Origin: a virus | Direction: 5' to 3' (one strand) | Length of the DNA: 58,838 nucleotides | IMG/VR virus record: IMGVR_UViG_3300036852_000195 | Coordinates: 1-58,838 of that record | Shown: in pieces, positions 3,547 to 52,251 of the stretch | Layout of the letters: the number at the start of each line of letters is the position of its first letter | How positions within the stretch are numbered: position 1 is the stretch's first letter | Notes under the pieces: generated by a model | The model's input: the letters and a program-made list of their open reading frames with translations, nothing else | Told to the model about the DNA's origin: nothing | Databases searched by the model: none | Program-made: the position numbers and the translations under genes

Positions 3547-4902
3547 TTAGAACGGAATATCTGCCAATCGCTGCTGACGGATTTCGCAGATGCGGGCGGC
3601 AATTTTGAACACGTTGCTTCCCGTGTCAAAATTTTCAGTCATTTCAGCGATGCTATATCCGCATTTCCAGGCTACGCACGCAGCCCAGGCGGTCACATCC
3701 GATCCAGCGAAATCTTGAATGTTTTCCAGCTTTTCATGTTCGCTGGCATTGCGCAATGCTTCCGCAACGTCCCCGGTATTCATGCCAAGATCGTTATAGG
3801 CGCTGGCGATGAATTTATTCAAGCGCGCCGTGTCTTTAATCCAGTCTGCGCCAGATTGTACCTGTTCGCCCGCTGCGCTTGAATTTGCCCCCTTCTGACG
3901 CGATTTTGAGCCATTCTTAGCAGCCTTCTCAGCGTTGCGCCGTTCGCGGTTTTCAAGAATAGCCTGAACCGCTTCCGCGTCGATCATATCGTCTTTCAGT
4001 TCACCGTCCACTTCCATTTTGTTGGTTGTGTTAATCCAGTGATCCTCATGATCGAAAAGATGAATCGTTTGTTGCATTACCCAATCCCGATCCCATTCCC
4101 GCGCCTGAATAAATTCCGCTTCGAGATCGGGCAGTCCGCCTGCTGGCGATTCGCCCGTTTCAGGATTGACGCCTGCCAGCAGCAGCCGCGCGGGTTGCAT
4201 CAGCATGGGGGTGAATACCTGCTGGTTGAAATCCGGTTCAATCTTGGCGTACAGCAGTGACATGGGCTTGATGCTGCGCTTGCCGTTGATCGTGACCGGA
4301 ACATTGCGCATCGAACGCCCGATGGTGAACGGCACGGACCAGAATGCCGTGTTGGATAAACGCTGCATGAAGACTTCCGCCATTTTCATGTAGGAGCGCA
4401 GGGCTGCCACGTCATAGATGGAAGTGGTTTCAACGGTAAACTTGCCCCATTCGCCCGTCAGTTCAAACAGCGCGGGAATGACAATATCCAGCCGTCCGTG
4501 ATTCTTGCAGGTGCGATCCAGCGGGTTGCAGGTGCAGGCCATCGGTTCAGTATCATATCCCGGCTTGTTGGCGTCCCAATGGACGCTGATCGTTTCCTCA
4601 TCGCAGCGCTTGAGCAGACGGGCGTGCGCCCAATCTTCGCGCCAATACTGGAACGCCTGATCCGGTGAGTCAGCAGCCAGTAGCACGTTATGGAATTCGC
4701 GCGGTTCTGTGCCGAATAGCTGTTCGCAGGCTGGGCGCAGGTGTTCGTAGTTTTCTTCTAGCGTCAGTCGAAAGAAATCCTGGTCGCGTCCGGCAACGCC
4801 CTTGTCAGACTTGGGCGCGCCTTTGCGCAGCTTGCCAAAGCGCGGGAAGTTTCCCAGCACCCCGCGCGCGTCCAATTGGGCTTCCATTGATTTTGTGGGC
4901 AT
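3547..4902 (-). CDS. Hypothetical early protein in a DNA-metabolism neighbourhood, function unrecognised
   Basis: The long ORF runs to 4956. The internal ATG at 4902 (MPTKSMEAQ...) sits 4 nt after the upstream stop and follows gaagga, so it is preferred. Confidence 0.55.
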   Translation of the reverse strand: MPTKSMEAQLDARGVLGNFPRFGKLRKGAPKSDKGVAGRDQDFFRLTLEENYEHLRPACEQLFGTEPREFHNVLLAADSPDQAFQYWREDWAHARLLKRCDEETISVHWDANKPGYDTEPMACTCNPLDRTCKNHGRLDIVIPALFELTGEWGKFTVETTSIYDVAALRSYMKMAEVFMQRLSNTAFWSVPFTIGRSMRNVPVTINGKRSIKPMSLLYAKIEPDFNQQVFTPMLMQPARLLLAGVNPETGESPAGGLPDLEAEFIQAREWDRDWVMQQTIHLFDHEDHWINTTNKMEVDGELKDDMIDAEAVQAILENRERRNAEKAAKNGSKSRQKGANSSAAGEQVQSGADWIKDTARLNKFIASAYNDLGMNTGDVAEALRNASEHEKLENIQDFAGSDVTAWAACVAWKCGYSIAEMTENFDTGSNVFKIAARICEIRQQRLADIPF

Positions 4903-4906
4903 GGTG

Positions 4907-5389
4907 TTATCCTTCTTTCCAAAGTTTTCGATTGACGATACGCGATACAGTAGCAACAGAAATATTCATTTTGTCCGCGATTTCCCGCTGACCGATATTC
5001 CCGTTTGAATAAAGCTGGCGAATTTCAACAACCTGAGAGTTGGTTAATTTATGCCGTCCGTGTTTTTCGCCACGATCTTGACGCCCTTTATTAACCTTGT
5101 CTCGATTGTTGTCCAATATCGTCCCTAAAAAGAGATGCGACGGGTTGCAACATGACGGATTATCGCAAGTGTGTAAAACGTTAAGATCGTTAGGAATTTG
5201 CCCGTATGTTAATTCCCAAGCAATTCGACTTGCGATACGGTTCTTTCCGTCTATGAATATTCCGCCGTAACTATTTTTATTCAGCCAGCCGTTCCACTGC
5301 CAACATCTTTTTTCGTTGGCAGTAAAAGCGACTTTTGACCAAAACCGCTGAATATCATCACTCTTGAAGTTGATTGTCGATTTTGCCAT
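4907..5389 (-). CDS. HNH (HNH_3-type) homing endonuclease with C-terminal HTH
   Basis: CWQWNGWLNKNSYGGIFIDGKNRIASRIAWELTYG...VLHTCDNPSCCNPSHLFLGTILDN plus an HTH (QREIADKMNISVATVSRIV). Paralog of 715..1296. Confidence 0.8.
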   Translation of the reverse strand: MAKSTINFKSDDIQRFWSKVAFTANEKRCWQWNGWLNKNSYGGIFIDGKNRIASRIAWELTYGQIPNDLNVLHTCDNPSCCNPSHLFLGTILDNNRDKVNKGRQDRGEKHGRHKLTNSQVVEIRQLYSNGNIGQREIADKMNISVATVSRIVNRKLWKEG

Positions 5390-7147: not shown

Positions 7148-7152
7148 TGACA

Positions 7153-7238
7153 GAACGCCCGCTGGGCATGAAACCATGCGGGCGTCTGCAACACATGAGC
7201 GGGCAGGGAGCCAACCACGACCCACGCCCCGCTTTTTA
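7153..7238 (+). terminator. Two hairpins at a convergent gene junction, the second followed by a T-tract
   Basis: First hairpin is ACGCCCGC...GCGGGCGT. Second is AGCGGG...CCCGCTtttttatttt at 7198-7238, with a long loop, so it is weak. Confidence 0.35.
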
Positions 7239-7249
7239 TTTTAGCACAT

Positions 7250-7516
7250 TTACTGAGTAGGTTTCACAAGCAATAATCGTTCCTCGATAACGCGGGCTTC
7301 CACCGCACGCTTCAGCAGTTGTTCGCTGGCTTCAACCAAGTGCGAGATTTTTATCAGTTCACGAATGGCAATCGGTAGATCATCCAGCGTGACCTGCCCT
7401 GAATATTCCTGATGGATTTGGAGACAATTCTGCAAAATATTAAGCTGCTGTTCGTATTCCTCAACCGTAAGCACAATCACTTTGATGACTTCAACGGTTT
7501 CGAGTTTGTCAGTCAT
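7250..7516 (-). CDS. Hypothetical protein
   Basis: 88-aa ORF with RBS gaggat and its own TGgTATATT motif upstream. Confidence 0.5.
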   Translation of the reverse strand: MTDKLETVEVIKVIVLTVEEYEQQLNILQNCLQIHQEYSGQVTLDDLPIAIRELIKISHLVEASEQLLKRAVEARVIEERLLLVKPTQ

Positions 7517-7543
7517 GCGAGTATCCTCATCTCAATTGATAAG

Positions 7544-7552
7544 AATATACCA
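7544..7552 (-). promoter_or_regulatory. Extended -10-like promoter (TGgTATATT) for 7250..7516
   Basis: Minus strand reads tcaTGgTATATTcttatc, located between the ncRNA terminator and the ATG at 7516. Confidence 0.4.
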
Positions 7553-7555
7553 TGA

Positions 7556-7587
7556 GAAAAAGAAAAACCCCCAACGTCTTGGGGGTT
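7556..7587 (-). terminator. Strong rho-independent terminator ending the ncRNA unit
   Basis: Minus strand reads AACCCCCAAgacgTTGGGGGTTtttctttttctc. The stem is 9 bp with a 4-nt loop and a long U-tract. Confidence 0.85.
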
Positions 7588-7950
7588 CTCTCGCCTCATT
7601 GCCGAATGCGCCGTCAGCGGTGCATCAATAAGATGTTTGACCCTGTTGCGGTTTACGGTTGAGACTTCTTTGCGGCTGTCAGGCCGCATTGCATTAAAGC
7701 CCGTCGATCCGCTGACACGAACCCTCGATCTTCGTTGCTTTCGAGCGCCAAGCCGATCATAAGTTGGTCGGCATACCCCAGGGCAACAATCACCACTGGT
7801 ATCTAGTCTCAGTACCGCTGAAACTCGTCCGTTCATGGCTTCTGCACGGCAGAACGGCTGCTGGTTCGTGCTTGCTGGCTCATCCCGTTAGTTTGCCCCT
7901 ATCGAGGGCAGTGTCACGGTGCTTTCCATCGCCGCATTGTATTTTGGGCT

Positions 7951-7997
7951 TGGTTGGTAGGGCAGACTCGAACTGCCCACACTGCACCTGCTACCAA
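7951..7997 (-). ncRNA. tRNA-like acceptor/T-arm minihelix ending in CCA
   Basis: Minus strand reads TTGGTAG-13 nt-GGCAG TTCGAGT CTGCC-CTACCAA-CCA. The T-loop is canonical and the acceptor helix is 7 bp, but there is no D or anticodon arm. Confidence 0.5.
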
Positions 7998-8106
7998 CTT
8001 TCAGGCTGTTTTTGACGCCATTCAGCATATCGTTGTATGCCTTCATCGTCGGGATACGCCCTGCGCCCCGCAACTTATTCAGGCCATCTTTCAGGCCAAA
8101 GTTGTA

Positions 8107-8180
8107 TGGGCGGGCGGCAGGACTTACACCTGCGACCTCTCCGTTTTCACCGTAGCGCTCTGTTGCTGAGCTACGTCCGC
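8107..8180 (-). tRNA. Degenerate tRNA-like cloverleaf (anticodon-position GAA), possibly a pseudo-tRNA or processing module
   Basis: GCGGACG TA GCTC AGCAACA GAGC G CTACG GTGAAAA CGGAG AGGTC GCAGG TGTAAGT CCTGC CGCCCGC CCA. There is an A:C mismatch in the acceptor and an A:G mismatch in the anticodon stem. The D-loop lacks GG and the T-loop lacks TTC. Confidence 0.4.
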
Positions 8181-8194
8181 CTGCTAGCAATATC

Positions 8195-8223
8195 AATATA
8201 TCTAAAACTTTTCTTTTTGTCAA
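8195..8223 (-). promoter_or_regulatory. Near-consensus sigma70 promoter (TTGACA-17-TATATT) for the ncRNA unit
   Basis: Minus strand reads tatTTGACAaaaagaaaagttttagaTATATTgatattg. The tRNA-like element starts about 8 nt after the predicted TSS. Confidence 0.75.
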
Positions 8224-8263
8224 TATACGAGTAAAATGATCGAAACAAACTCAGGAGAATTAC

Positions 8264-8671
8264 ATGACAACCAAAAAATCAATCCCGTTGCCCGCCACCC
8301 CGATTGATCTAACAGGCAGAGAAACCAATCTTCAGCGCGCGGCAAAGCGTTATCCCAGAGAACCGATCATGGCAAACCAGCGCGGCCAATTGGCACTGAA
8401 CTTTATTCACGAGTACCGCCGTGTAAAGGGTTACAGTCCCAAGTATGAAGAAATTGCTTTAGGCGTGGGTTATGCAGACACAGCAGGCGGGACGGCGTTC
8501 ACTCTGATTCAGCAGTTGATAGACGAGGGTTGGTTGAAGGGCGAAAAAGGCATTGCTCGATCCGTCATGCCGCTGCGCCCGCCGACAGAATTGTACTGCG
8601 AAATCACCGACCCAGATTTGAAAGCGATTGCCAAAAAGCAGCGCAATCTGCGTATCCTGCGGAGGCTGTAA
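8264..8671 (+). CDS. LexA-N-terminal-like winged-helix DNA-binding protein (no peptidase domain)
   Basis: QLALNFIHEYRRVKGYSPKYEEIALGVGY...TLIQQLIDEGWLKGEKGIARSV resembles the LexA DNA-binding domain. RBS is caggag. Confidence 0.55.
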   Translation: MTTKKSIPLPATPIDLTGRETNLQRAAKRYPREPIMANQRGQLALNFIHEYRRVKGYSPKYEEIALGVGYADTAGGTAFTLIQQLIDEGWLKGEKGIARSVMPLRPPTELYCEITDPDLKAIAKKQRNLRILRRL

Positions 8672-19315: not shown

Positions 19316-20077
19316 ATGGATACCCCTCAGTATACCCCAAAAGCAGATTGTGAATGTCCTCAATGTGGCATTCATTTCCAGTCACTTTACCACCGAAAAC
19401 AAAAATACTGTTCGCGGACGTGTCGTGACGACGCCCGAAGAAATCAAGTAAATTGTATCTGCGAACAATGCGGATTGTTGTTTCAGGTGAAAGCCAGTGA
19501 AATTAAACACGGGCGTAAATATTGCTCGTTAATTTGCCGCAACGAAGCAAAGCGAAATCAGGTTGATTGTGTTTGTGAACAATGCGGAAAATCGTTTCAA
19601 ATTGATTCCGCACAAGTTAAGCACGGTGTTGGGAAATACTGTTCTCGTCAGTGTCACGGTATAGGACAGCGAAGGCAGGTTGACTGCATCTGTAAAGAAT
19701 GCGAAAAATCATTTCAGGTATCTTTCGCGGTAGTAAAACGCGGCGGCGGCAAATATTGTTCAAAAACCTGTATGGGTCTTTCCAAAAGAGGCGAAAAACA
19801 TTATTTGTGGAGAGGCGGGCAAAGCAAGTATCGAGGTCCAAATTGGACACAACAGCGAAAACTGGCTTATAATCGCGATAATGGCGAATGTAAATATTGC
19901 GGCAAAAAGCCTAAAGCTGGTGAGCGAAAGTTTCAGGTACATCATATAAAACCATTTCGCGCTTTCGACGGCGACTATTTAACAGCTAATCAATTAACCA
20001 ATTTGATTACTTTATGTCAACTATGCCATCGAAAAGCCGAACGCGGCCAGATCGTTATTCAGCCATATCTGTTTTAG
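19316..20077 (+). CDS. HNH endonuclease with four tandem zinc-ribbon repeats
   Basis: Four repeats of about 37 aa of the form C.C.[QE]CG..F......KHG.KYCS..C. C-terminal CKYCG...VHHIKP...NLITLCQLCHRKAE. Confidence 0.75.
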   Translation: MDTPQYTPKADCECPQCGIHFQSLYHRKQKYCSRTCRDDARRNQVNCICEQCGLLFQVKASEIKHGRKYCSLICRNEAKRNQVDCVCEQCGKSFQIDSAQVKHGVGKYCSRQCHGIGQRRQVDCICKECEKSFQVSFAVVKRGGGKYCSKTCMGLSKRGEKHYLWRGGQSKYRGPNWTQQRKLAYNRDNGECKYCGKKPKAGERKFQVHHIKPFRAFDGDYLTANQLTNLITLCQLCHRKAERGQIVIQPYLF

Positions 20078-20088
20078 GGAGAATTGAA

Positions 20089-20631
20089 ATGAACGAACTG
20101 ATTAGCAGTAAGCGCCTCGTGGTCTTTGATAAGGACGGTACGTTGGTCAAAGGTGTGATTGGCAAGAATGGCAAATCGCATTGTCCCGACACCTTAGAGA
20201 CGCAAGAATATTTCGATGATGTAGAGTCGAAGTGTGCCGAATTGGTTCGGGGTGGCGCGATTTTGACTGTGTCGTCGAATCAGGGTGGAGTTGCATTTTC
20301 CATTTTGACGAGCGACGAGGCCGATCTGTTGGTACGGGCTGCGACTGAATATATCGGCGGCCTGGGGTACAGGGTATCGTTTTATCATCCCAACGGCAAG
20401 ATTGCACCCTGGAATCAGGATCATCGCACCCGCAAACCCGCTCCTGGTATGTTATTTGACCTGATGGAACAATGCGAATTCACGTCCGCCAACACGGTCA
20501 TGGTCGGGGATTGGGATACCGATAAGCAGGCGGCAGAAGCGGCGGGCTGTGCATTTATATGGGCGAACGATTTCTTTGAGCGTTCCAACCCGTTTGCGGA
20601 TCGACTGCACAGCATTATGGATGTGAAATGA
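20089..20631 (+). CDS. HAD-IIIA family phosphatase (GmhB / PNK-3'-phosphatase-like)
   Basis: Motifs VVFDKDGTL, SNQGG, RKPAPGM and VGDWDTD. Confidence 0.75.
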   Translation: MNELISSKRLVVFDKDGTLVKGVIGKNGKSHCPDTLETQEYFDDVESKCAELVRGGAILTVSSNQGGVAFSILTSDEADLLVRAATEYIGGLGYRVSFYHPNGKIAPWNQDHRTRKPAPGMLFDLMEQCEFTSANTVMVGDWDTDKQAAEAAGCAFIWANDFFERSNPFADRLHSIMDVK

Positions 20632-23085: not shown

Positions 23086-23730
23086 ATGTCTAATTATACT
23101 CGCTCTTGTAACAAATGTGGGATTGAATATCCGCTCACTTCAGAACATTTTCGGCGCGATGCTCAAAAGTCCGATGGGTTTCAACATACCTGTAAACGTT
23201 GTAGGGGCGTGAAGCCTCCTCGTAATACAACCCCAATTGATTTTGGTGACGCCATTGGGATTCCCCTGACACAAGGATTTGTCGCAATCATTGATCGAAT
23301 TGATATTGATCTTACTGATAAAACGTGGTCATCATGTATTCCCAAAAAGCGCAAAGTTTATGCTGGGCGTGATGAAAACGGGATTCGTGTTTATTTACAT
23401 CATGTGATTTTTGAGCGAACTATTGGACGGAAATTGAATAAAGGTGAAACGGTTGACCATGTAGATGTTAATCCGCTGAACAATAAGCGTGATAATCTTA
23501 GATTAGCGTCAAAGGGGCAACAGCAATACAACACTTCAAGACGATCCGATAATGCATCAGGGTTCAAGGGCGTTCATTATCGTGCGGGATCGTCGAAACC
23601 TTGGCGCGCTGAAATTACCAAAGATCGAAAACGATACATATTAGGATATTTCTTAACGCCAGAGGAAGCGCATCGCGCTTATATTGAGAAAGCCAAAGAA
23701 TTATTTGGCGAATTTGCCCGTTTAGAGTAG
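23086..23730 (+). CDS. HNH homing endonuclease with an AP2 DNA-binding domain
   Basis: HNH_3 motif TVDHVDVNPLNNKRDNLRLAS. AP2 domain SGFKGVHYRAGSSKPWRAEITKDRKRYILGYFLTPEEAHRAYIEKA. Confidence 0.8.
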   Translation: MSNYTRSCNKCGIEYPLTSEHFRRDAQKSDGFQHTCKRCRGVKPPRNTTPIDFGDAIGIPLTQGFVAIIDRIDIDLTDKTWSSCIPKKRKVYAGRDENGIRVYLHHVIFERTIGRKLNKGETVDHVDVNPLNNKRDNLRLASKGQQQYNTSRRSDNASGFKGVHYRAGSSKPWRAEITKDRKRYILGYFLTPEEAHRAYIEKAKELFGEFARLE

Positions 23731-24407: not shown

Positions 24408-25019
24408 ATGACCAGTGTATCAGGTATTTATGTTATTCTCCACAAGAAAAGCGGCATGATTTACATCGGTCAAGCGCAGAATATACGCAAGCGCTGGAAA
24501 GATCATCGTGCTGGATTGAATACCAATCACCATCACAATTCGCATCTGCAATCAGCCTGGAATAAATACGGCGCGTCAGCTTTCCAGTTTAAAATACTTG
24601 AACGCTGTTCTGTGGATCGGTTGGATGAACGTGAGCAGCATTATCTAAATATCCACATGCCAAAGAAAACGTGTTATAACGTTTCAACATTGGTTGGCAC
24701 AACACGAGGAATATCTCCTAGCGCTGAAACACGAATGAAATTAAGCGCTGCCAATAAAGCAAGATATACCGATCCAGCCGAACGGTTGAAAACCAGTGAA
24801 CAGCTAAAAGGTCATTATGTTAGTGATGAAACACGAAACAAAATGGCTGTAAGCAAAGCAATGAACTGGCTTTTGATTGATCCTAACGGTACTGAATACA
24901 TTGTTAGTAATTTGCGTCAGTTTTGCCGACAAAACCAGTTGAATGATAGTGCTTTGTCGGCAGTATCTAAGGGTAGATTTAAGCATCACAAGGGCTGGGT
25001 ATGTCGCAAGATCAACTGA
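24408..25019 (+). CDS. GIY-YIG homing endonuclease #1 (between terS and terL)
   Basis: GIYVILHKKSGMIYIGQAQNIRKRWKDHRAGL. NUMOD3-like SAETRMKLSAANK. C-terminal HTH-like NLRQFCRQNQLNDSALSAVSKGRFKHHKGW. Confidence 0.85.
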   Translation: MTSVSGIYVILHKKSGMIYIGQAQNIRKRWKDHRAGLNTNHHHNSHLQSAWNKYGASAFQFKILERCSVDRLDEREQHYLNIHMPKKTCYNVSTLVGTTRGISPSAETRMKLSAANKARYTDPAERLKTSEQLKGHYVSDETRNKMAVSKAMNWLLIDPNGTEYIVSNLRQFCRQNQLNDSALSAVSKGRFKHHKGWVCRKIN

Positions 25020-26511: not shown

Positions 26512-26582
26512 TGAGGGAATAAAAGGTTCGCCCGCGTGTTATCAGCACCGGGCGAGTGAGTGTCACATTGGAGGTGAACACT

Positions 26583-27182
26583 ATGGCTATTGTATCCGGT
26601 ATTTATATTATTCTCAATCGCAAGAACGGCAAAGTATATCTCGGCAAAACAAACGATTTGAAGCGAAGAATCAAAGAACATCACTCCAAATTGAATTGCG
26701 GACATCACGATAACCGTTATCTGCAAGCATCCTGGAATAAACACGGCGCAAAAGCATTTCAATTCAAAATACTTGAACGCTGTCCCCTTGAGCAGTTAGA
26801 CGAACGTGAAAAGCATCATATTGCAATCTACAAGGCGCGCGGATTGGCTTACAATCTGTCTGATGGCGGCGAAGGGGCGTCAGGAGCAATTCGTAGTCCT
26901 GAAACCCGCCTGAAAATGAGCAAGGCTCAAAAGGGGAGAACAATAACCCCAGAGGCGCGGCGCAAACTCAGTGAAGCCAATACAGGATTTCGCCACACTG
27001 AAGAAACACTTGCTAAAATGCGTGAAGTCCATACGGGAAAATTACACACTGAAGAAACTAAACGCAAGATTGCAGAGTCGCACAAAACAGAAAATTTAAG
27101 CGAAGAATACAGGCGCAAATTGAGCGAAGGCGCAAAACGCAGGGAAGCCCGCAAACGCGCAGAACGTGACAAAGCCGACTAA
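26583..27182 (+). CDS. GIY-YIG homing endonuclease #2 (between terL and portal)
   Basis: GIYIILNRKNGKVYLGKTNDLKRRIKEHHSKL. Repeated NUMOD3-like (E)TR.K.S motifs. RBS ggaggtg before the ATG at 26583. Confidence 0.85.
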   Translation: MAIVSGIYIILNRKNGKVYLGKTNDLKRRIKEHHSKLNCGHHDNRYLQASWNKHGAKAFQFKILERCPLEQLDEREKHHIAIYKARGLAYNLSDGGEGASGAIRSPETRLKMSKAQKGRTITPEARRKLSEANTGFRHTEETLAKMREVHTGKLHTEETKRKIAESHKTENLSEEYRRKLSEGAKRREARKRAERDKAD

Positions 27183-33509: not shown

Positions 33510-34114
33510 AATGGATTCGCAATAACTGCTATAATGGCTTGAATCCAACCGTATGGGGGGCTGCGCGGACAAATACTCACGCAGCCTCTAGAAAACGCTT
33601 AAATATGCCTTATAGCTCGATTTCCGCCCCTTCCAGAGGATTGTTAACCATTACAGCGCAGCAATTATTCAAGCTGCTGCAACAAGGCGCGATTTTACAA
33701 TCCGTTCACAACCCGTTTGAACAATCATATATTCACGAATTGATTACGCGCATTCCTGATGGACGGGTTTATCAGCGGATTTCTGTTGATCTTATCAACG
33801 AACTGCTCAGTCAGCATAAAATCCGTAGAACTGAATACCGCCCCTGGAATGGTGCGGTAAATTATTTCTACAATCTCATGATCGTGTGTAATGCAGTTGA
33901 ACTGCTGGAACTGATGCAGACCGGGGCAATATTAACCAGTCGTTGGCGCTACGGGAAGCGCATCAATAATTTAAAATTGCCAACGGGTGAAAGTCTGACT
34001 GTTCAATACAGCAATGTTCAATCGCTGCTGAAACATGGTAAGATTTACAGCATTCCGCTATCCGGTGACAATTACGATTATTATCTGGTGAAACCTCCAT
34101 GCCCTACAACTTAA
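33506..34114 (+). CDS. Hypothetical protein with an internal duplication
   Basis: ORF from 33506, or from the ATG at 33605 if the 33527 promoter is used. Two related segments: LFKLLQQGAILQS and LLELMQTGAILTS. Confidence 0.45.
   Translation: MKWIRNNCYNGLNPTVWGAARTNTHAASRKRLNMPYSSISAPSRGLLTITAQQLFKLLQQGAILQSVHNPFEQSYIHELITRIPDGRVYQRISVDLINELLSQHKIRRTEYRPWNGAVNYFYNLMIVCNAVELLELMQTGAILTSRWRYGKRINNLKLPTGESLTVQYSNVQSLLKHGKIYSIPLSGDNYDYYLVKPPCPTT
33527..33535 (+). promoter_or_regulatory. Extended -10 motif (TGcTATAAT) plus leader hairpin. Lies inside the 33506 ORF if that start is real.
   Basis: TGcTATAAT at 33527-33535. Hairpin GGCTGCG/CGCAGCC at 33559-33586. The leader shares atccaacc with the 33210 leader. 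Confidence 0.4.
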
Positions 34115-37100
34115 AGCCAACCTATATCTCCCGCGATGTACCACAGTATTTTGATGATGTGCTTTCCGATAGTTCTTCCTGGCAGGCCGATGTGTATCGG
34201 CTGGCTGCAACACTCGCCCGCGAAAAAGGCATTCAGCGATTGGTGGATATTGGCTGCGGTAGGGGCGAAAAGCTCAAACCGTTGGCTGCTGAATTCAAAA
34301 TTGCAGGAATTGATTACGAAGCAAATATTGATGCTTTCGCGATCAATATCCCTGGTTCGGATCATTATTTCAGCAATCTTGAAACCGCAATTGAACCACC
34401 TGCGCTTTTTAAAGACTCGGTTGTTATTTGCGCTGATGTGATCGAACACTTGATTGATCCGTCAGCCCTGCTGGAAACATTGCGTAACGCTGCGTATACA
34501 GCTAATTATGTTCTCGTTTCCACGCCTGACCGGATGCGTGTTCACAAAAAGGATCACAACGGACCGCCCGTGAACCAATACCACGCCCGCGAATGGACGC
34601 TGGATGAACTCGTTGGCTGGTTCGAGCAAGAAGGTTTGCCCGTCAAATGGGCAGGCTGGACGATCAGCAATGACAACCGCCCTGAGCAGCGCTGGACGAG
34701 TCTGGTTATTTTGTCACAGCATGAAACGATTGACAGTCTTCCAATCACGTTTCAGCCTGCGCCCCAATATCGAAAGGTGTCTAAGAGTAACGGTTCAAAC
34801 CGTTTGAAAGTGTGGATGACGCCCACGCCCAGCGAGGCCGGACGCGATACCACCAATGCGATCCACCAGATCGTCTGTCGACTGGATGGCTTGCTGCCGG
34901 ATTATGACATTGAACTGATTGAGCATCCCGATAACGCTGATTTGCGCGTGGGTCATGCCGGACAGGGGAGCGATGGACCGATTGACGTGGCGCATTATCA
35001 TGGGTTGTACAACACGGCGGGCGGGCATGACGCAGCGCACTTCTTCGCCATCAACTCCCATGTGATCCGCAACCTGCGGGCGGCGAAGATTGTCACCGCG
35101 CCGTCTGAATGGATTGCCGACGTGCTGCGGCGCGATATGCACCTGTCCCCTGATATAGTGGGCTGGGGCGTGGATGTGAACGAGTGGGCGCCCGTTACCG
35201 ATCCAGGGTTATACGTGCTGTGGAACAAGGCGCGCACCGACGCGGTGAGCGATCCAACGCCAATGCTGCAACTGGCGGCGATGGCTCCCCAAGTGCCGTT
35301 CCTGACCACGTTTGGAGAGGGCAGGCAGAACGTTAAGACCATCGGCAGACAACCGTATGAGGTCATGAAAGATTATGTACGTAATGCCTCCGTCTATCTG
35401 GCAACGGTTACGGAAACTTTTGGGATCGCGACGGTTGAAGCGATGGCGTCCGGCGTCCCCGTCCTCGGCTTTAGGCACGGGAATACTGCTCACTTGGTTG
35501 AGCACGGAGTCACGGGATTCCTGGCAGAGCCGGGAGACATTGAAGGACTCTACGAAGGGCTGAAATATTGCCTCAAGTATCGGGATCGTCTGGGCGCGAA
35601 TGCGCGCGAGGCCGCTAAATTCTATACCTGGGATCGGGTGGCGCAGTCGATGGCAGCGATCTATCGGCGGGCGCTGGAACCGCACCAGGGCGTGAAAGTC
35701 AGTGTGATTATCCCCTGCCACAACTATGCGGAATATGTTCAACAAGCAATTATCAGCGTCCAGGAACAGCAAACAACTTTCGATTATGAAATTATCGTTG
35801 TGCTAGATCGTTGCACAGATACAAGTTATCAAGCGGCAATGATTTCTCATATGGCGAACACCAATCAACACTGTAATTCTTTCAGTATAAAAGTCGATAA
35901 CGGTAGTTTATCTGCAACCCGCAACGATGGCATCAAGGCGGCAACAGGCGAGTATATTGTCTGTCTGGATGCCGATGATCGCCTGGGTTCAGCCTTATTT
36001 TTGCAAACTCTGAGCGATGCCCTGGATCGTGACCGCACGTTGGGCATCGCTTTTACATCGATTCGGTTCATGAACGCAGCCGGGGAATTAGGCCATTTGT
36101 CCACATGGCCGAAGGGGTTTGACTTTGAAGCCCAGGCCGCGCGGCGCAATCAAATCCCGTCCTGTTGCATGTTCCGCAAGGAAGCCTGGGCGCGCGCGGG
36201 TGGGTTTCGCCCCTGGTTCAAATACGCCGAAGATGCTGAATTTTGGACAACCGTTCTGGGCATCGGTTATGGAGCAAAACATGTGGTTGAGGATGGTTGG
36301 TTCCAGTATCGGCTGCACAGCAAATCCGCTTCGCAGGTTCACCGCACGGGCGAAGTGAAAGAACCCGACTGGACAGAATTTCACCCCTGGACGAAAGACG
36401 GTCAGCGCCCCTTTGCAGCAGGTGGCAAACCGCCGCTGGGTTCGTGGCCTGTTCGGTTTTATCTGAACCCTGAAATCAGCGTGATTATCCCAGTGGGGGA
36501 AGGTCACGAGGAATTGGTTAAAGACGCGCTGCATAGCGTGGAAGGCCAGACGTTCCGCATGTGGGAATGTATCGTAGTCAACGATACCATCACAAAACTC
36601 GATTTAAGCGGGTTTCCCTGGGCAAAGGTGGTTAATCAACTAGCAGGTGAGGGCGCAGGCGCAGCGCGCAACCTGGGCGCAAAATCAGCCAATTCTCCAT
36701 TCCTGGTGTTTCTGGACGCCGACGATATTTTGAAACCCACGTTTTTAGAGCGAACGCTGGAAACTTACAAGCATCACGGACGCTATGCTTATACCGACTG
36801 GATGACCGATGATCGGCGCGGCAAGGTGGAAGTACATCCGACGCCGGAATACGGGCGCGAATCGCTCTGGGATCATCCATCACTGCATCCGGTGACGGCA
36901 CTCATTCCCCGCTATTGGTTCAATGCTGTGGGCGGGTTTGATGAAAGCCTGACCGCTTTTGAAGACGTTGATCTGTACATGAAATTTTTCGCGCACGGTT
37001 TCTGTGGGAAGCGTGTTCCCGAACCGCTGTTGGTATATAATTTGGACACGGGCAAGCGGCGAAAAGCAGGCGAAAAGACCAAGAAACAATTCCTAGCGCT

Positions 37101-37668
37101 GCTCAAAACCCGTTACAGTGATTTTATGGAGGGCAAAAAGATGTGTGATTGTGTTGATCCGCCAAAGGGCAAGCAGCCCGCGCCGCCATCGCCGGATAAC
37201 GCGGAAGAATATCGCGCTGCATACGGCGAAATGATCCTGGTGCAATACACGTTTCAGTATGCGGGCGACTCCGCCGTGACGCTGCTCGGTCCCGGCACGA
37301 AGGCCAACTATGGCGCGCGGGCAAAGAACGACGTGTTTTACGTCTGGGAAGCTGACCTGATAGCGGGCGGCGATATGTTCACCCGTGTTGAACATTACGA
37401 TGTGCAGCCGCAGCCAACGATTGTTCCGCCTGCGCCCGAACCTTTAATTGCTTCAACAATGCAATATCAGCCAGCGAGAGAAGTTGAATTGAAAGGTTTT
37501 GCGGGCGAAGAAGAAATCGTTTATGACCAAAGCGGGAAAATCCCTCTCGCAATGTTCAAAAACGATACAATTGAAGGCAAACTTGCAGAACAAAAAGCGT
37601 TGCCCAAGAAAACAACCCCGCCGCGCGGCGCACGTAAAACGAAAGCGACACGGCGCAAAACATCATGA
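34099..37668 (+). CDS. Multidomain methyltransferase-GT1(GT4-like)-GT2-GT2 glycosylation enzyme
   Basis: SAM motif I: LVDIGCGRGEKL. GT1: ETFGIATVEAMASGVPVLGF...GVTGFL. GT2 twice: VSVIIPCHNYAEYVQQAI...CLDADD and ISVIIPVGEGHEELVKDAL...FLDADD. Basic C-terminal tail. Confidence 0.85.
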   Translation: MPYNLKPTYISRDVPQYFDDVLSDSSSWQADVYRLAATLAREKGIQRLVDIGCGRGEKLKPLAAEFKIAGIDYEANIDAFAINIPGSDHYFSNLETAIEPPALFKDSVVICADVIEHLIDPSALLETLRNAAYTANYVLVSTPDRMRVHKKDHNGPPVNQYHAREWTLDELVGWFEQEGLPVKWAGWTISNDNRPEQRWTSLVILSQHETIDSLPITFQPAPQYRKVSKSNGSNRLKVWMTPTPSEAGRDTTNAIHQIVCRLDGLLPDYDIELIEHPDNADLRVGHAGQGSDGPIDVAHYHGLYNTAGGHDAAHFFAINSHVIRNLRAAKIVTAPSEWIADVLRRDMHLSPDIVGWGVDVNEWAPVTDPGLYVLWNKARTDAVSDPTPMLQLAAMAPQVPFLTTFGEGRQNVKTIGRQPYEVMKDYVRNASVYLATVTETFGIATVEAMASGVPVLGFRHGNTAHLVEHGVTGFLAEPGDIEGLYEGLKYCLKYRDRLGANAREAAKFYTWDRVAQSMAAIYRRALEPHQGVKVSVIIPCHNYAEYVQQAIISVQEQQTTFDYEIIVVLDRCTDTSYQAAMISHMANTNQHCNSFSIKVDNGSLSATRNDGIKAATGEYIVCLDADDRLGSALFLQTLSDALDRDRTLGIAFTSIRFMNAAGELGHLSTWPKGFDFEAQAARRNQIPSCCMFRKEAWARAGGFRPWFKYAEDAEFWTTVLGIGYGAKHVVEDGWFQYRLHSKSASQVHRTGEVKEPDWTEFHPWTKDGQRPFAAGGKPPLGSWPVRFYLNPEISVIIPVGEGHEELVKDALHSVEGQTFRMWECIVVNDTITKLDLSGFPWAKVVNQLAGEGAGAARNLGAKSANSPFLVFLDADDILKPTFLERTLETYKHHGRYAYTDWMTDDRRGKVEVHPTPEYGRESLWDHPSLHPVTALIPRYWFNAVGGFDESLTAFEDVDLYMKFFAHGFCGKRVPEPLLVYNLDTGKRRKAGEKTKKQFLALLKTRYSDFMEGKKMCDCVDPPKGKQPAPPSPDNAEEYRAAYGEMILVQYTFQYAGDSAVTLLGPGTKANYGARAKNDVFYVWEADLIAGGDMFTRVEHYDVQPQPTIVPPAPEPLIASTMQYQPAREVELKGFAGEEEIVYDQSGKIPLAMFKNDTIEGKLAEQKALPKKTTPPRGARKTKATRRKTS

Positions 37669-38411: not shown

Positions 38412-39092
38412 ATGTCTATCAGTATACCAAAAACCTCCGGTATCTACAAAATCACCTGCACGGCAAATGGGTTGATTTATGTGGGTTCTGCCAAAAGTTT
38501 ATTCCATCGCTGGAATAAGCATCGTAGTGAACTGCGAAACAATAAACACTTCAATCCGCGTCTACAAAATGCTTACAATAAATATGGCGAAGATGCTTTC
38601 ACGTTTGAAGTTCTTGAACTGGTGATGCCCTGGTCGAGAATTGATCGTGAAAATCATTGGTTGAAACAACTTGAACCCTACAAACGAGAAATTGGTTTCA
38701 ATGTTGGGATGGCAGCAGATAATGGTATGACGGGGCGAAAACACACACTTGAGACGCGGGTTAAGCAGGGCGCTAAAGCAAAAGGACGACAGCATTCATC
38801 TGAAAGCCGCAAACTGATGAGTGCGCAGCGTAAAGGTTTGAAAAAGTCCCCGGAACACAAGAACAAAATCAGTGTAACGCACATGGGGATGAAACAGTCT
38901 CCTGAAATTTTAGCGAAAATCGCGGATACGTTGTCAAAAAACTACATTGTGATTGATCCAGATGGCAATGAAATCGCTGTCCGCAATCTGAATCAGTTTT
39001 GTAAAGACAATGGTCTAAGTCAATGCCATATGTCGGAAGTAGCAAATGGGAAAGCCCGCCATCACAAAGGATGGAGGTGCAGTAAGGAGTAA
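38412..39092 (+). CDS. GIY-YIG homing endonuclease #3
   Basis: GIYKITCTANGLIYVGSAKSLFHRWNKHRSEL. NUMOD3-like repeats. C-terminal NLNQFCKDNGLSQCHMSEVANGKARHHKGW, closest to #1. Confidence 0.85.
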   Translation: MSISIPKTSGIYKITCTANGLIYVGSAKSLFHRWNKHRSELRNNKHFNPRLQNAYNKYGEDAFTFEVLELVMPWSRIDRENHWLKQLEPYKREIGFNVGMAADNGMTGRKHTLETRVKQGAKAKGRQHSSESRKLMSAQRKGLKKSPEHKNKISVTHMGMKQSPEILAKIADTLSKNYIVIDPDGNEIAVRNLNQFCKDNGLSQCHMSEVANGKARHHKGWRCSKE

Positions 39093-46514: not shown

Positions 46515-46580
46515 ACTCTAAACAAAGTGCCGTTCGCGGTGTGCAACCACCCAACGGCTGTATGCAGAGGGATTGCACAC

Positions 46581-47252
46581 ATGGCTAGTATATCGAAAAC
46601 CTCCGGTATTTACATCATCAAGAATCTGCGTAACGGCAAATTTTATCTTGGTCAAACACAGAACATTCGGAAACGATGGAATGACCATAAAAGCAATTTA
46701 CGCAAAAACACTCACAGTAATATCCATCTTCAACGTGCTTGGAACATCGACGGCGAAAAGAATTTCAAATTTCTGGTGCTAGAATATTGTCCTGTTGAAC
46801 AGTTGGATGAACGTGAGCAGGTGCATCTTGATGCATATGTTAGCGGCAATAATTGTTATAACATTGCAAAAGATGCTACTGCGCCAAATCGCGGAAGACA
46901 GGGGACTATGCTAGGAAAGCATCACACTGATGCAACAAAACGTAAAATCAGTGAGGCGAAGCGCGGCAAACCTTCTCACGGTAAAAAGCACACAGCAGAA
47001 ACAATCCAGAAAATGAGAGAAATTCATCGCAACATATCAGATGAAACACGCCTCAAAATGAGCGAGGCCAAACGCGGCAAACCTCCGCACAATAAAGGCA
47101 AGCCGGCAAGTGAAGGGCAGAAGCAAAAACAGCGCGAAGCTATGCTTGGCAGGCCATCACCGAATCGCGGAAAACCGATGAGCGAAGAACAGAAACAAAA
47201 ATTAAGCGAAGCAGCAAAGCGTCGTTATCACAAACAAACAGATGAGGAATAA
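46581..47252 (+). CDS. GIY-YIG homing endonuclease #4 (between tape measure and distal tail genes)
   Basis: GIYIIKNLRNGKFYLGQTQNIRKRWNDHKSNL. Multiple NUMOD3-like repeats (KRKISEAKRGKP, TRLKMSEAKRGKP, QKQKLSEAAK). Closest to #2. Confidence 0.85.
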   Translation: MASISKTSGIYIIKNLRNGKFYLGQTQNIRKRWNDHKSNLRKNTHSNIHLQRAWNIDGEKNFKFLVLEYCPVEQLDEREQVHLDAYVSGNNCYNIAKDATAPNRGRQGTMLGKHHTDATKRKISEAKRGKPSHGKKHTAETIQKMREIHRNISDETRLKMSEAKRGKPPHNKGKPASEGQKQKQREAMLGRPSPNRGKPMSEEQKQKLSEAAKRRYHKQTDEE

Positions 47253-51474: not shown

Positions 51475-52251
51475 TTATTTTCTTCGGCGTGTGTCAAGGG
51501 CAGATAAAATACGCTCGTATTTTGACTGAACAATACACCAACCGCCGATCTGCCTAAAATCAGAACGGCGGATTGAAACCCTGTAATAAGTTTTGCCAGA
51601 CGGAAGAATTTCAGACACTTTTAGTCCGGCTGAACGAATTGCCATTATCTCAAGTAATCTGGGTAACGTTTTCAGCCAACTATCTACTCCGCGAATAAGA
51701 ATTGATCCATGAGTAGTTACATGCCCATCGCCGTCTATAATCCCGGCGATAAAAGCCAATTGGTGTTCAAGCGGGGCATCAAAAATAAAATTGGGGATTT
51801 TAGATTTATGATTACAGGAGTTTTGTAACCAAGTTGCAAAATCCGTGCTGTAAATCATAAGTCCGTGTTGAGGTTTCTTTCCTTTTCTCAGAAGCGGACG
51901 AGCGTCTTTGCGCTCATTCCATCGCAATCCTAAGTCTGAAATACAAATCTTGCTGTGCGCAATTATCTCTGATGTAGTGCTGACAATTCCAATTTGGTTA
52001 GGATGAGAAGTTCCATGTTGCTTTGTGATCCATCCGTCTGTGATGTATATTCCGATTAGATAACAAAGCGATTCGGACGATTCCTTAAATTTCCAAATGC
52101 TGTATGAACGTTTGCCTTGTCCAATCCCTAGATTGTGGGCTTTAATTGCCCTTACAACGGTTGACGTTGAGCAGTTATTACGTTGAGAAATTTCCATTTG
52201 CGTGAATTTTTGGGATTGAATGTCTTTCAAGAGTTGATCGTGATTAATCAT
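51475..52251 (-). CDS. LAGLIDADG homing endonuclease (double-motif) with N-terminal HTH
   Basis: Motifs LIGIYITDGW and LAFIAGIIDGDGHV. N-terminal HTH is QMEISQRNNCSTSTVVRAI. It is the only minus-strand gene in the late arm. Confidence 0.8.
   Translation of the reverse strand: MINHDQLLKDIQSQKFTQMEISQRNNCSTSTVVRAIKAHNLGIGQGKRSYSIWKFKESSESLCYLIGIYITDGWITKQHGTSHPNQIGIVSTTSEIIAHSKICISDLGLRWNERKDARPLLRKGKKPQHGLMIYSTDFATWLQNSCNHKSKIPNFIFDAPLEHQLAFIAGIIDGDGHVTTHGSILIRGVDSWLKTLPRLLEIMAIRSAGLKVSEILPSGKTYYRVSIRRSDFRQIGGWCIVQSKYERILSALDTRRRK

Follow-up and report, generated by a model that had tools for sequence, protein, structure and literature searches.

A structured RNA opposite the repressor gene of uncultivated phages and its putative assignment to a previously uncatalogued family with a tRNA-mimic 5' domain

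The minus strand between positions 8223 and 7556 of the window (the whole stretch of 58,838 nucleotides analysed, a phage genome) very probably constitutes an independent RNA gene, which contains no protein gene and gives rise to a conserved structured RNA. The conserved RNA has a length of ~350-440 nt (7997-7556 in the window) and can be predicted with good confidence to comprise a tRNA-like minihelix, a three-way junction, six further hairpins and an intrinsic terminator. In all likelihood it forms a small family, restricted to one fixed site in one lineage of uncultivated phages. On the sequence evidence, this appears to be a real, previously uncatalogued family of phage non-coding RNAs (ncRNAs) with a tRNA-mimic 5' domain. 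The site closely follows the leftward early promoter, which is itself arranged back to back with a LexA-like repressor gene. Four other lineages show the promoter, minihelix, core and terminator in unchanged order and with covariation, which is more than could be expected by chance. All of the elements listed in a first-pass annotation are present in the sequence, including a near-consensus promoter (11 of 12 consensus positions), an acceptor/T-arm minihelix with a GGCAG-TTCGAGT-CTGCC arm and a GC-rich terminator with U tract, which has a 12-pair stem. However, the 620-nt unit described there is not one entity. The conserved part consists of the minihelix, a core of ~310 nt and the terminator (7997-7556), with the cloverleaf and spacer forming a window-specific 5' add-on. 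The features of the locus are as follows:

8264-8671, plus strand: LexA-like repressor gene, with its promoter region back to back with the RNA promoter
8223-8195, minus strand: sigma-70 type promoter, TTGACA-17-TATATT
8180-8108, minus strand: tRNA-Phe(GAA) gene called by ARAGORN, window-specific 5' module of the transcript
8107-7998, minus strand: window-specific spacer of 110 nt, not conserved in any homolog
7997-7954, minus strand: tRNA-like minihelix, TTGGTAG-13 nt-GGCAG TTCGAGT CTGCC-CTACCAA, with CCA directly 3'
7997-7991 with 7960-7954, minus strand: H1, acceptor-like stem of 7 bp, 5/7 pairs with compensatory change
7990-7978, minus strand: 13-nt linker, conserved GUGCAG.GUG
7977-7973 with 7965-7961, minus strand: H2, T-like stem of 5 bp, 4/5 pairs with compensatory change
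7972-7966, minus strand: T loop UUCGAGU of the minihelix
7951-7944, minus strand: conserved junction AAGCCCAA
7951-7837 region, minus strand: three-way-junction domain, conserved in homologs, with the invariant internal loop AAAGCA / GAUGAG
7933-31 with 7839-37, minus strand: H3
7928-26 with 7878-76, minus strand: H4
7919-16 with 7888-85, minus strand: H5, with a variable inserted hairpin at 7909-7895
7871-67 with 7848-44, minus strand: H6
7861-58 with 7852-49, minus strand: H7
7824-18 with 7812-06, minus strand: H8
7799-93 with 7783-78, minus strand: H9
7772-68 with 7756-52, minus strand: H10, loop CCAACUUAUGA
7745-41 with 7728-24, minus strand: H11, loop including ACGAAGA
7723-17 with 7712-06, minus strand: H12
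7705-7663, minus strand: most conserved stretch AUCGACGGGCUUUAAUGCAAUGC, holding H13 and H14
7701-7696 with 7668-63, minus strand: H13, enclosing H14
7688-84 with 7675-71, minus strand: H14
7662-7596, minus strand: 3' tail of variable length, ~50 nt of it window-specific and gapped in all homologs, containing CCGCTGAC at 7620-7613
7595-7591, minus strand: conserved GGCGA
7590-7556, minus strand: intrinsic terminator, 12-pair stem (7590-7563) covarying among homologs, U tract to 7556

Relatives were found via the neighbouring repressor protein and share 65-77% nucleotide identity in the flanking genes. The RNA is carried at the same site, opposite the LexA-like repressor gene, in L054, L057, L059/L060 and L061, the full copies having nhmmer E-values of 1e-95 to 1e-103. 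The 492 kb of DNA retrieved contain no further copy. Nothing matching 7552-8187 was found in L040-L047, L055 and L056, the RNA having the character of an inserted cassette. The RNA is absent from about six related lineages and roughly half of the lineages examined carry it. Since around half of the related phages do without it, the RNA is accessory. In the IMG/VR database, protein searches with the two flanking genes gave no match, the 37 matches to a 17-mer of the tRNA T arm did not include a homolog of the locus, the four core motifs searched had 0 matches, and the repressor alignment recovered a single relative, without the RNA. The same alignment had no match in the 185,579 species genomes of GTDB, and neither the window locus nor the L059 and L061 RNAs had a DNA match among GenBank phages.

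The genomes with and without the RNA bear on whether it acts in cis, as a leader, attenuator or insulator of read-through from the early-left promoter into the 88-aa gene (7516-7250). A strong promoter is located upstream of the RNA and this gene downstream of it on the same strand, and immediately after the terminator there is a second -10 element, TGGTATATT, at 7552-7544. However, L054, L059 and L061 have no following protein gene on that strand, where the RNA end adjoins a small RNA and a convergent 247-aa gene, while homologs of the 88-aa gene occur without the RNA in L046, where the promoter is joined directly to it, and in L047. Considering also that ~400 nt and ~15 helices far exceed the needs of an attenuator, a cis-acting role is highly improbable.

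The structure of the RNA is evidenced by compensatory change. RNAalifold predicted 75 pairs from four sequences, 24 of them compensatory. The predicted pairs were 95.3% paired, compared to 84.9% in shuffles, and the 24 double-change pairs compare with 10.6 in shuffles (0/500), with only 1-4 retained in the control where partners were slid by 1-3 columns. The hand-curated helices comprise 77 pairs, of which 98.5% are canonical and 37 show a double change, compared to 77.9% canonical when strands from different sequences were paired. These values derive from four complete and one partial distinct sequences of one phage lineage, and thus from few independent events; L057 ends at a contig end before H8, so that H8-H14 and the motif AUCGAYGGGCUU rest on the four full copies. 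As would be expected of a new family, the homologs occupy the same genomic site, contain the invariant motifs AAGCCCAA, GGAAAGCA and AUCGAYGGGCUU, and show compensatory changes in their common helices H1-H14. The long structured tail proposed previously is thus a conserved structured RNA on the basis of the compensatory pairs in homologs. Among the curated helices there are 21 G·U cells and one A·C cell, which argues for RNA-level structure on one strand, and the strand indicated by this excess agrees with the orientation of the promoter and terminator. Thermodynamic stability alone was rejected as evidence, as the free-energy z-scores are modest and similar on the two strands (-1.9 and -2.0) and do not discriminate between them.

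The same alignments speak against the region encoding one or two small proteins, corresponding to the 111-aa and 107-aa ORFs of the ORF track or to a 61-aa ORF called as a gene by JGI at 8073-7888. One minus-strand frame has a single stop across the unit, and the codon-usage score of 8107-7888 is 0.19, compared to 0.36 for genes and -0.47 off frame; for the spacer this value is intermediate and its ORF is without relatives. However, the third-codon-position pattern expected of a protein is absent from the homologs, with substitutions spread evenly over the three codon positions, 14/17 indel runs are not multiples of three, and at least one stop occurs in every reading frame of the core in every homolog. 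The 111-aa ORF matched only itself among 5.8 billion proteins and the 107-aa ORF had no relative among 1.84 billion representatives, the searches with both returning only the window's own ORF and one spurious match. No Pfam or PHROG match was obtained for the track ORFs, which run through the tRNA and the terminator, and no ribosome-binding site like those of the neighbouring genes is visible at them. Protein coding is thus scarcely credible, the track ORFs appear spurious, and the earlier description of a self-contained promoter-to-terminator unit without a credible ORF is upheld.

The 5' module of the window transcript is recognised as a tRNA by the Rfam tRNA model (RF00005; 44.3 bits at 8180-8109, compared to a gathering score of 29) and by ARAGORN as tRNA-Phe(GAA). 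While the cloverleaf geometry is shared with RF00005, the module differs in several respects. The cmscan alignment shows A5:C68 and A29:G41 mismatches, a D loop (AGCAACA) without G18G19 and a T loop (UGUAAGU) without U55C56, so that the canonical elbow of G18, G19, U55 and C56 is absent, and the module further has G32 and a discriminator C. The cloverleaf had been described as degenerate. The mismatches and altered loops are present, but it is not simply degenerate, as both tRNA finders accept it and the unusual pair of D and T loops recurs in other tRNAs. This D arm and T loop are shared by other metagenomic tRNAs that have different stems, among them amber suppressors. The discriminator of tRNA-Phe is normally A73. 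In view of the identity elements of PheRS, the C in its place calls for caution regarding aminoacylation or translational use of the 8180-8108 module.

Two repeats are found between this module and the minihelix, CATACAAC at 8108-8101 and 8039-8032, and GCCTGAAAG at 8096-8088 and 8006-7998. Each has exactly two copies in the 58.8-kb window, all inside 8108-7998, and two copies arose by chance in 43/100 (CATACAAC) and 9/100 (GCCTGAAAG) shuffles, each taken alone. The short direct repeats noted before the modules are therefore present but not conserved, the spacer being absent from the other carriers. That the locus is an ordinary phage tRNA gene with non-functional spacer or decaying captured DNA, in which only the tRNA matters, might be suggested by the tRNA calls of two programs and the window-specific nature of the 110-nt spacer and ~50 nt of the tail. 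This reading has next to no probability and is already contradicted, as the tRNA is the unconserved part, with no tRNA called in L057, L059 and L061, while the sequence from 7997 onwards is conserved at 71-78% between lineages, with 24-37 compensatory pairs. Conservation and covariation thus extend beyond the tRNA-like part, and the core identity is equal to or above that of the flanking genes (65-74%).

The region 5' of the minihelix differs by carrier. In the window it holds the tRNA-Phe with altered elbow and the spacer, in L054 and L058 a permuted YrlA-like tRNA mimic (30.7 and 45.4 bits, respectively), and in L057 and L059 a plain hairpin. The comparison strongly suggests that this region is a swappable slot. 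At the position of the minihelix itself, L054 has a full cloverleaf (tRNA model, 44.9 bits), and the minihelix of L061 is weak. The tRNA-like modules proposed for the window hence represent a recurring part of the RNA across carriers, as a cloverleaf in L054 and in YrlA-like form in L054 and L058, but the CCA end attributed to them is not conserved, as CCA follows the minihelix only in the window and L059. An acceptor/T-arm fragment is also what tRNA-targeting integrases leave in attP, and a primase-helicase gene is located ~4 kb away, as might be expected of a DNA-level or replication-linked element. Such an element could be an attP in which part of a tRNA gene is retained, or a transcript of the nearby replication module with a primer or origin role. 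An attP holding a host tRNA 3' fragment was rejected, as no exact match to the 25-mer GGCAGTTCGAGTCTGCCCTACCAAC, taken from the 3' side of the minihelix, was obtained among the 185,579 species genomes and both stems covary, which indicates selection for pairing and not for identity to a host tRNA. With no integrase found near the locus, a terminator of its own and G·U exceeding A·C by 21 to 1, a DNA-level element is extremely unlikely.

Downstream of the three-way junction, 7824-7706 forms five consecutive hairpins (H8-H12), with compensatory changes in each. As a candidate loop-loop contact, the H14 loop CUGA (7682-7679) may kiss UCAG (7715-7712) in H12, the corresponding sequences being ACCG/CGGU in L054. 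A closing GCC/GGC helix of only three invariant pairs may form between AAGCCCAA and the pre-terminator GGCGA. Two long-range 8-nt complements reported earlier do exist in the sequence, but were rejected as conserved helices, as each has one arm within an insertion that is window-specific or variable (7909-7895 and 7662-7596), and the opposite arms take part in the local helices H11 and H12.

The core matches no Rfam 15 family, including GOLLD, ROOL, RNase P RNA, tmRNA and Y RNA. Neither the GOLLD nor the ROOL model matched anywhere in the window at the gathering threshold, nor did they match 7300-8500, 7550-7960 or L054 3340-3975 at E <= 10, or L057, L059 and L061 at E <= 1. GOLLD occurs in phages and prophages, adjoins tRNA genes and has a conserved 3' and a variable 5' region, and GOLLD and ROOL assemble into homo-oligomeric RNA cages (PMC12286853). 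A similar arrangement is found here, with a tRNA in the same transcript (window and L054), a variable 5' part and a conserved 3' core, and the window RNA shares with both that it is phage-encoded, non-coding, highly structured and accompanied by tRNA genes. However, the lengths known for these two families are ~580 and >800 nt, compared to ~350-440 nt, their helix layout differs, and the window RNA is set apart by its fixed site opposite the repressor gene in a single phage lineage. Of the suggestions that the locus is a member or analogue of the GOLLD/ROOL class or a new tRNA mimic, membership can thus be dismissed (no Rfam match at E <= 10), and a new tRNA-mimic RNA analogous to the large tRNA-adjoining phage RNAs fits best.

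The YrlA of Mycobacterium smegmatis, with an acceptor stem of 7 bp, is cleaved by RNase P and receives CCA, while YrlA and Y RNAs are encoded within ~4 kb of a Ro60/Rsr (TROVE) gene on the same strand and have a GNCGAA(N)G motif near the 5' end, the Rsr-binding site (PMC4201824). The Ro60/Rsr-bound YrlA and Y RNAs have tRNA-like modules in common with the window RNA, and the 5' end of the L054 and L058 transcripts is formed by a permuted domain (T-arm, stem-loop, D-arm) as is typical of YrlA. However, the 310-nt core has no counterpart in Y RNAs. Rfam RF02553 (>=69 bits) has no match in the window, and the L054 and L058 scores given above concern the tRNA-like domain only. No TROVE/Ro60 was found among the ~58 window ORFs scanned by Pfam, which include all of those within 5 kb of the locus, with a few ORFs, mostly < ~200 aa and none within 5 kb, outside the scan. 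The transcripts of the window, L057 and L058 lack the GNCGAA(N)G motif, which in the others occurs only at inconsistent positions. ARAGORN called no tmRNA. A 17-nt T-arm match in L057 was all that appeared, and a tmRNA-like tag frame starting in the H11 loop was rejected as it is not conserved in L054 by eye, no tag reading frame common to the window and L054 being seen in the region inspected. As to RNase P RNA, GGAAAG and GGGCUU superficially resemble the CR-I and CR-V motifs, and GGAAAGCACCGU with GACGGGCUUU resembled a bulged P4 helix. The latter was rejected, as the CCGU after GGAAAGCA pairs locally in L059 and L061 and no Rfam match was obtained; its partner is ACGG, with the compensatory GCGGC/GCCGC in L061. 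These resemblances, together with the GOLLD-like combination of neighbouring tRNAs, conserved 3' and variable 5' part (PMC12286853) and the sub-threshold YrlA matches, could indicate a very divergent member of a known family (GOLLD, ROOL, RNase P RNA, tmRNA, Y RNA/YrlA or group I intron) missed by the covariance models. This is very unlikely, with none of these families found at E <= 10 on the window core or homologs, no tmRNA called, the P4-like pairing contradicted, and neither TROVE/Ro60 in the ORFs scanned nor the GNCGAA motif in the window RNA.

Comparable phage RNAs include the stable RNAs of T4 (species 1 and 2), which are transcribed together with its tRNA cluster, and the immunity RNAs CI of P4 and C4 of P1, which are matured by RNase P. 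These ncRNAs share a transcript with tRNAs or resemble them in shape, and their maturation depends on tRNA-processing enzymes of the host. CI and C4 are encoded in the immunity region, as is the window RNA. However, the T4, P4 and P1 RNAs are ~70-140 nt with simple folds, and differ from the window RNA in size and fold. C4, which is included in Rfam, has no match to the window. The search for antisense targets in the phage genome returned chance-level 11-12-mers only, without significant complementarity, and there is no indication that the RNA acts as an antisense on the genome of its own phage. The analysis likewise revealed no binding partner and no catalytic motif.

A ~630-nt primary transcript would be cut by host tRNA-processing enzymes, with RNase P predicted to cut on the 5' side of the two 7-bp acceptor stems, which start at 8180 and 7997, and a 3' tRNA-processing activity after 8108. 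The RNase P cleavage of M. smegmatis YrlA is a precedent for such processing. The expected products would be a tRNA-Phe-like RNA and a stable core RNA, in which the tRNA-like helix would enclose the 5' end and the terminator hairpin the 3' end. As CCA is not conserved and the L061 minihelix is weak, tRNA-type processing may not be universal. More speculatively, the core may act in trans as a folded scaffold or decoy, with the tRNA mimicry engaging a host tRNA-handling or tRNA-targeting factor, or the core self-assembling, in early infection. It is possible, if on balance doubtful, that this RNA introduces a new class of large phage effector RNAs, with no member described before, in which an interchangeable tRNA-mimic head (minihelix, cloverleaf or YrlA-like) would bring the 310-nt body to the host tRNA-handling machinery, such as a defence nuclease that cleaves tRNAs or an enzyme of processing or repair, or nucleate RNA-only assembly, with an advantage in early infection.

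The RNA is an unusually easy object of study, as its promoter and terminator are defined, phages that are otherwise syntenic naturally either have or lack it, and its modular tRNA-mimic 5' end differs by lineage. Together, these features provide a ready-made comparative experiment on what tRNA mimicry gives a large phage RNA. It further means that the regulatory switch region in a phage lineage without cultured relatives includes an RNA gene, and illustrates that gene callers place spurious ORFs on such RNAs, in this case a 61-aa "hypothetical protein".

The repressor encoded opposite the RNA is a protein of 135 aa. The promoter of the RNA is also found in L054, L057, L058, L059, L061, L053 and L046, and its spacer motif AAAAGTTTT persists in almost every relative read, whether or not the RNA is present, while L042 and L055 showed no such motif. 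In L059 the spacer carries the variant AAAAGTTTC.

The large RNA gene lies on the minus strand (8223-7556), where it follows the early-left promoter of the switch region. The promoter, cloverleaf, minihelix and terminator that the first-pass annotation had placed on this strand are all present in the sequence:

8223-8195, minus strand: promoter (TTGACA-17-TATATT), matching 11/12 consensus positions
8180-8108, minus strand: tRNA-Phe(GAA), called by ARAGORN and scoring 44.3 bits with the Rfam tRNA model (gathering score 29)
7997-7954, minus strand: acceptor/T-arm minihelix, confirmed in the sequence
7590-7556, minus strand: terminator with a 12-pair stem and U tract

The tRNA-Phe starts approximately 8 nt past the expected transcription start. 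From minihelix to terminator, the window copy of the large RNA measures 442 nt and those of the other carriers about 350-440 nt. Nearly all relatives read, including non-carriers, have the promoter with the motif AAAAGTTTT in its spacer (8201-8217 in the window); this promoter is part of the phage backbone. L059 has AAAAGTTTC in this leftward-promoter spacer, and neither L042 nor L055 was seen to have the motif. As a candidate operator, the motif may be recognised by the neighbouring LexA-like repressor.

On the minus strand, one frame stays nearly open over the whole unit, the codon-usage score of 8107-7888 (0.19) is intermediate between those of genes in frame (0.36 ± 0.10) and off frame (-0.47), and a 61-aa ORF was called by JGI within this stretch. 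The 111-aa ORF matched only itself (the JGI 61-aa ORF) among 5.8 billion proteins, the 107-aa ORF had no relative among 1.84 billion cluster representatives, and neither matched Pfam or PHROG. Among the homologs, substitutions are evenly distributed over the three codon positions with no codon periodicity, 14/17 indel runs are not multiples of three, and no reading frame in any of the sequences is free of stops. The arguments against coding outweigh those for it, in line with the earlier view that the unit holds no credible ORF.

Relatives were obtained through the adjacent, divergently transcribed 135-aa protein (8264-8671), a LexA-type repressor according to some sources, by fetching the contigs of its homologs (53-66 % identical). 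Two contigs, L038 and L039, are 100 % identical to the window and hence uninformative, while flanking genes align at 65-77 % nucleotide identity among the relatives. Nothing corresponding to 7552-8187 occurs in six lineages (L040, L041, L042-45, L046/47, L055 and L056). The same promoter region leads directly into a homolog of the 88-aa gene of the window (7516-7250, minus strand) in L046, relative to which the window carries an insertion from just past the -10 element to just past the terminator. Collection of homologous loci, as the first-pass annotation had proposed, yielded four other carrier lineages (L054, L057, L059/L060 and L061) with compensatory changes and with the large RNA at the identical site and in the same orientation. 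The L057 copy is incomplete at the contig end, the full copies gave nhmmer E-values of 1e-95 to 1e-103, and no further copies were found in 492 kb of fetched DNA. Carriers and non-carriers are interleaved in repressor similarity, which argues that the large RNA is accessory and has been gained or lost repeatedly. In the non-carrier L040 the same promoter is followed by approximately 250 nt of different sequence devoid of genes (3700-3950, minus strand), which at its start (TTGGGTCGG...TATCGGTTAT) is similar to the L054 and L058 5' leaders. The insertion site may take up non-coding RNAs more generally.

Conservation begins at the minihelix rather than the tRNA. No tRNA is present in L057, L059 or L061, and the window alone has the tRNA-Phe, the 110-nt spacer and the two short direct repeats. 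The conserved unit (7997-7556, minus strand) includes:

minihelix of 7-bp and 5-bp stems (H1 and H2), with a linker containing GUGCAG.GUG
motif AAGCCCAA
H3-H7, forming a three-way-junction domain whose internal loop AAAGCA/GAUGAG is invariant
hairpins H8-H12
AUCGAYGGGCUUYAA.GCRAUGC, strongly conserved, together with H13 and H14
variable-length tail
GGCG, then the terminator

A full cloverleaf (tRNA model, 44.9 bits) replaces the minihelix in L054. The CCA reported directly after the minihelix holds for the window and L059, with ACA or A-rich sequence in the other carriers.

The comparisons show the large RNA to be a self-contained RNA gene whose multi-helix fold is conserved. RNAalifold predicted 75 pairs from the four complete sequences, 24 of them with compensatory double changes. 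In an independent count 95.3 % of cells were paired versus 84.9 % in shuffles, with 24 double-change pairs versus 10.6 (0/500 shuffles for every measure), and sliding the partners by 1-3 columns left 1-4 double-change pairs; the weak point of these statistics is sampling, with five sequences all from one phage lineage. The helix table, hand-picked and hence biased toward pairing, holds 77 pairs (98.5 % canonical; 37 with double changes), versus 77.9 % canonical when strands were paired across different sequences. There are 21 G·U cells and 1 A·C cell, which places the structure on the minus strand, in agreement with the orientation of promoter and terminator. A candidate loop-loop contact between UCAG (H12 loop) and CUGA (H14 loop) covaries, with ACCG/CGGU in L054. 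Core identity (71-78 %) is equal to or higher than that of the neighbouring genes (65-74 %), and free-energy z-scores are uninformative taken alone. The two long-range 8-nt complements proposed earlier are present in the sequence but not conserved: the arm CCCTCGAT belongs to the variable hairpin that interrupts H5, the arm CCGCTGAC to a tail insertion specific to the window, and their partners pair locally, in H11 and H12.

The region upstream of the conserved minihelix differs by lineage:

window: tRNA-Phe and spacer
L057 and L059: plain, conserved hairpin
L061: other sequence
L054 (3903-3804, minus strand) and L058 (83-17, minus strand): tRNA-like domain in permuted order (T arm, then a stem-loop whose loop is GCGUAAGU, then D arm), at the transcript start behind the same promoter

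The permuted domain scored 30.7 bits (L054) and 45.4 bits (L058) with the Rfam YrlA (Y RNA-like) model, the gathering score being 69. Its middle hairpin covaries between the two contigs, and no Ro60 gene was seen nearby. A recurring theme is that every transcript version contains at least one acceptor/T-arm-type module.

The window cloverleaf had been described as degenerate. Its mismatches (A5:C68 and A29:G41), D loop (AGCAACA) and T loop (UGUAAGU) are visible in the cmscan alignment, but it is not just degenerate, as the elbow recurs elsewhere. A metagenome scan for the D-loop/T-loop pair, with a pattern that itself selected for these loops, found five other tRNAs on unrelated contigs:

L048: 1761-1835
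L051: 2176-2250
L049: about 4754-4819
L052: about 8420-8485
L050: about 130-191

These share the D arm (GTAGCTCAGCAACAGAGC) and T loop (TGTAAGT) and differ in the stems of acceptor, anticodon and T arm; among them are amber-suppressor (CTA) copies located in tRNA arrays. The window tRNA may thus exhibit a recurrent alternative elbow, or non-canonical tRNA scaffold. Furthermore, IMG/VR phage contigs L014 (5320-5520), L002, L005, L009, L015 (all with tRNA-Phe) and L025 (tRNA-Ser), 5/6 of them from sample 3300045988, also carry a 'tRNA-???' whose anticodon call is 2 nt long and, approximately 105 nt beyond it, a T arm (GCAGGTGTAAGTCCTGC) that has this odd T loop too. These loci may be interrupted or unusual tRNA genes.

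The cmscan and tRNA-finder searches suggested in the first-pass annotation returned the tRNA only, with no other Rfam 15 family matching the locus or its homologs at the gathering threshold, nor at relaxed cut-offs (E ≤ 10 for the window locus and L054; E ≤ 1 for the other carriers). By the defining features of YrlA (PMC4201824), the window has no YrlA match and no GNCGAA(N)G motif, and no TROVE/Ro60 gene was found among the approximately 58 window ORFs scanned; the tRNA-mimicking Y RNAs are therefore treated as an analogy rather than the family. GOLLD and ROOL come closest in kind, being likewise phage RNAs beside tRNAs, with GOLLD sharing the combination of conserved 3' part and variable 5' part. 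Further analogues are the stable RNAs of T4 and the P4 and P1 immunity RNAs, the latter matured by RNase P. Each family tested failed to match by covariance model, so the large RNA is classified, from its sequence, as a new family within an already known general type, namely large structured phage RNAs with tRNA mimicry. No description of it was found in the literature searched.

The classical minimal substrate of RNase P is a coaxial stem of 7 bp plus 5 bp. Host tRNA-processing enzymes would cut the primary transcript at the tRNA-like modules, giving a tRNA-Phe-like RNA and a core RNA with both ends helix-protected. RNase P cleavage and CCA addition have been reported for a Y RNA with a 7-bp acceptor stem (PMC4201824). 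The core may, speculatively, act in trans as a scaffold or decoy using tRNA mimicry. Alternatively, it may self-assemble, as ROOL and GOLLD do (PMC12286853). Defences that cleave tRNA are widespread (PMC13056530). No antisense target was found in the phage genome, and no neighbouring gene suggests a partner.

The window is a phage genome encoding a primase-helicase, large terminase, tail proteins and many homing endonucleases; GenBank phages gave no DNA match, and no cultured phage has a terminase more than 28 % identical to that of the window. Homing-endonuclease genes are unusually abundant (three HNH_3, one HNH, four GIY-YIG and one LAGLIDADG; 715-1296, 4907-5389, 19316-20077, 23086-23730, 24408-25019, 26556-27182, 38412-39092, 46527-47252 and 51475-52251), which may be relevant to the patchy spread of inserted cassettes. 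A 1189-aa protein with a methyltransferase domain and several glycosyltransferase domains (GT1 and GT2) is encoded mid structural gene region (34099-37668). A HAD-family phosphatase (20014-20631) with a weak match to PNK3P (polynucleotide kinase 3'-phosphatase domain; 29.7 bits) could act in end repair of RNA or DNA. Another conserved RNA, smaller than the first, is located downstream of the large RNA (7150-7247, minus strand). Its -10 element is of the extended type (TGTGCTAAAAT), the loop of its hairpin is almost invariant (GUGGUUGG), and it shares its terminator hairpin with the convergent 247-aa gene. The smaller RNA occurs with and without the large RNA (L041, L042, L054, L059 and L061; in L056 the terminator part alone aligned), and 16 of its 24 pairs predicted by RNAalifold show compensatory change.
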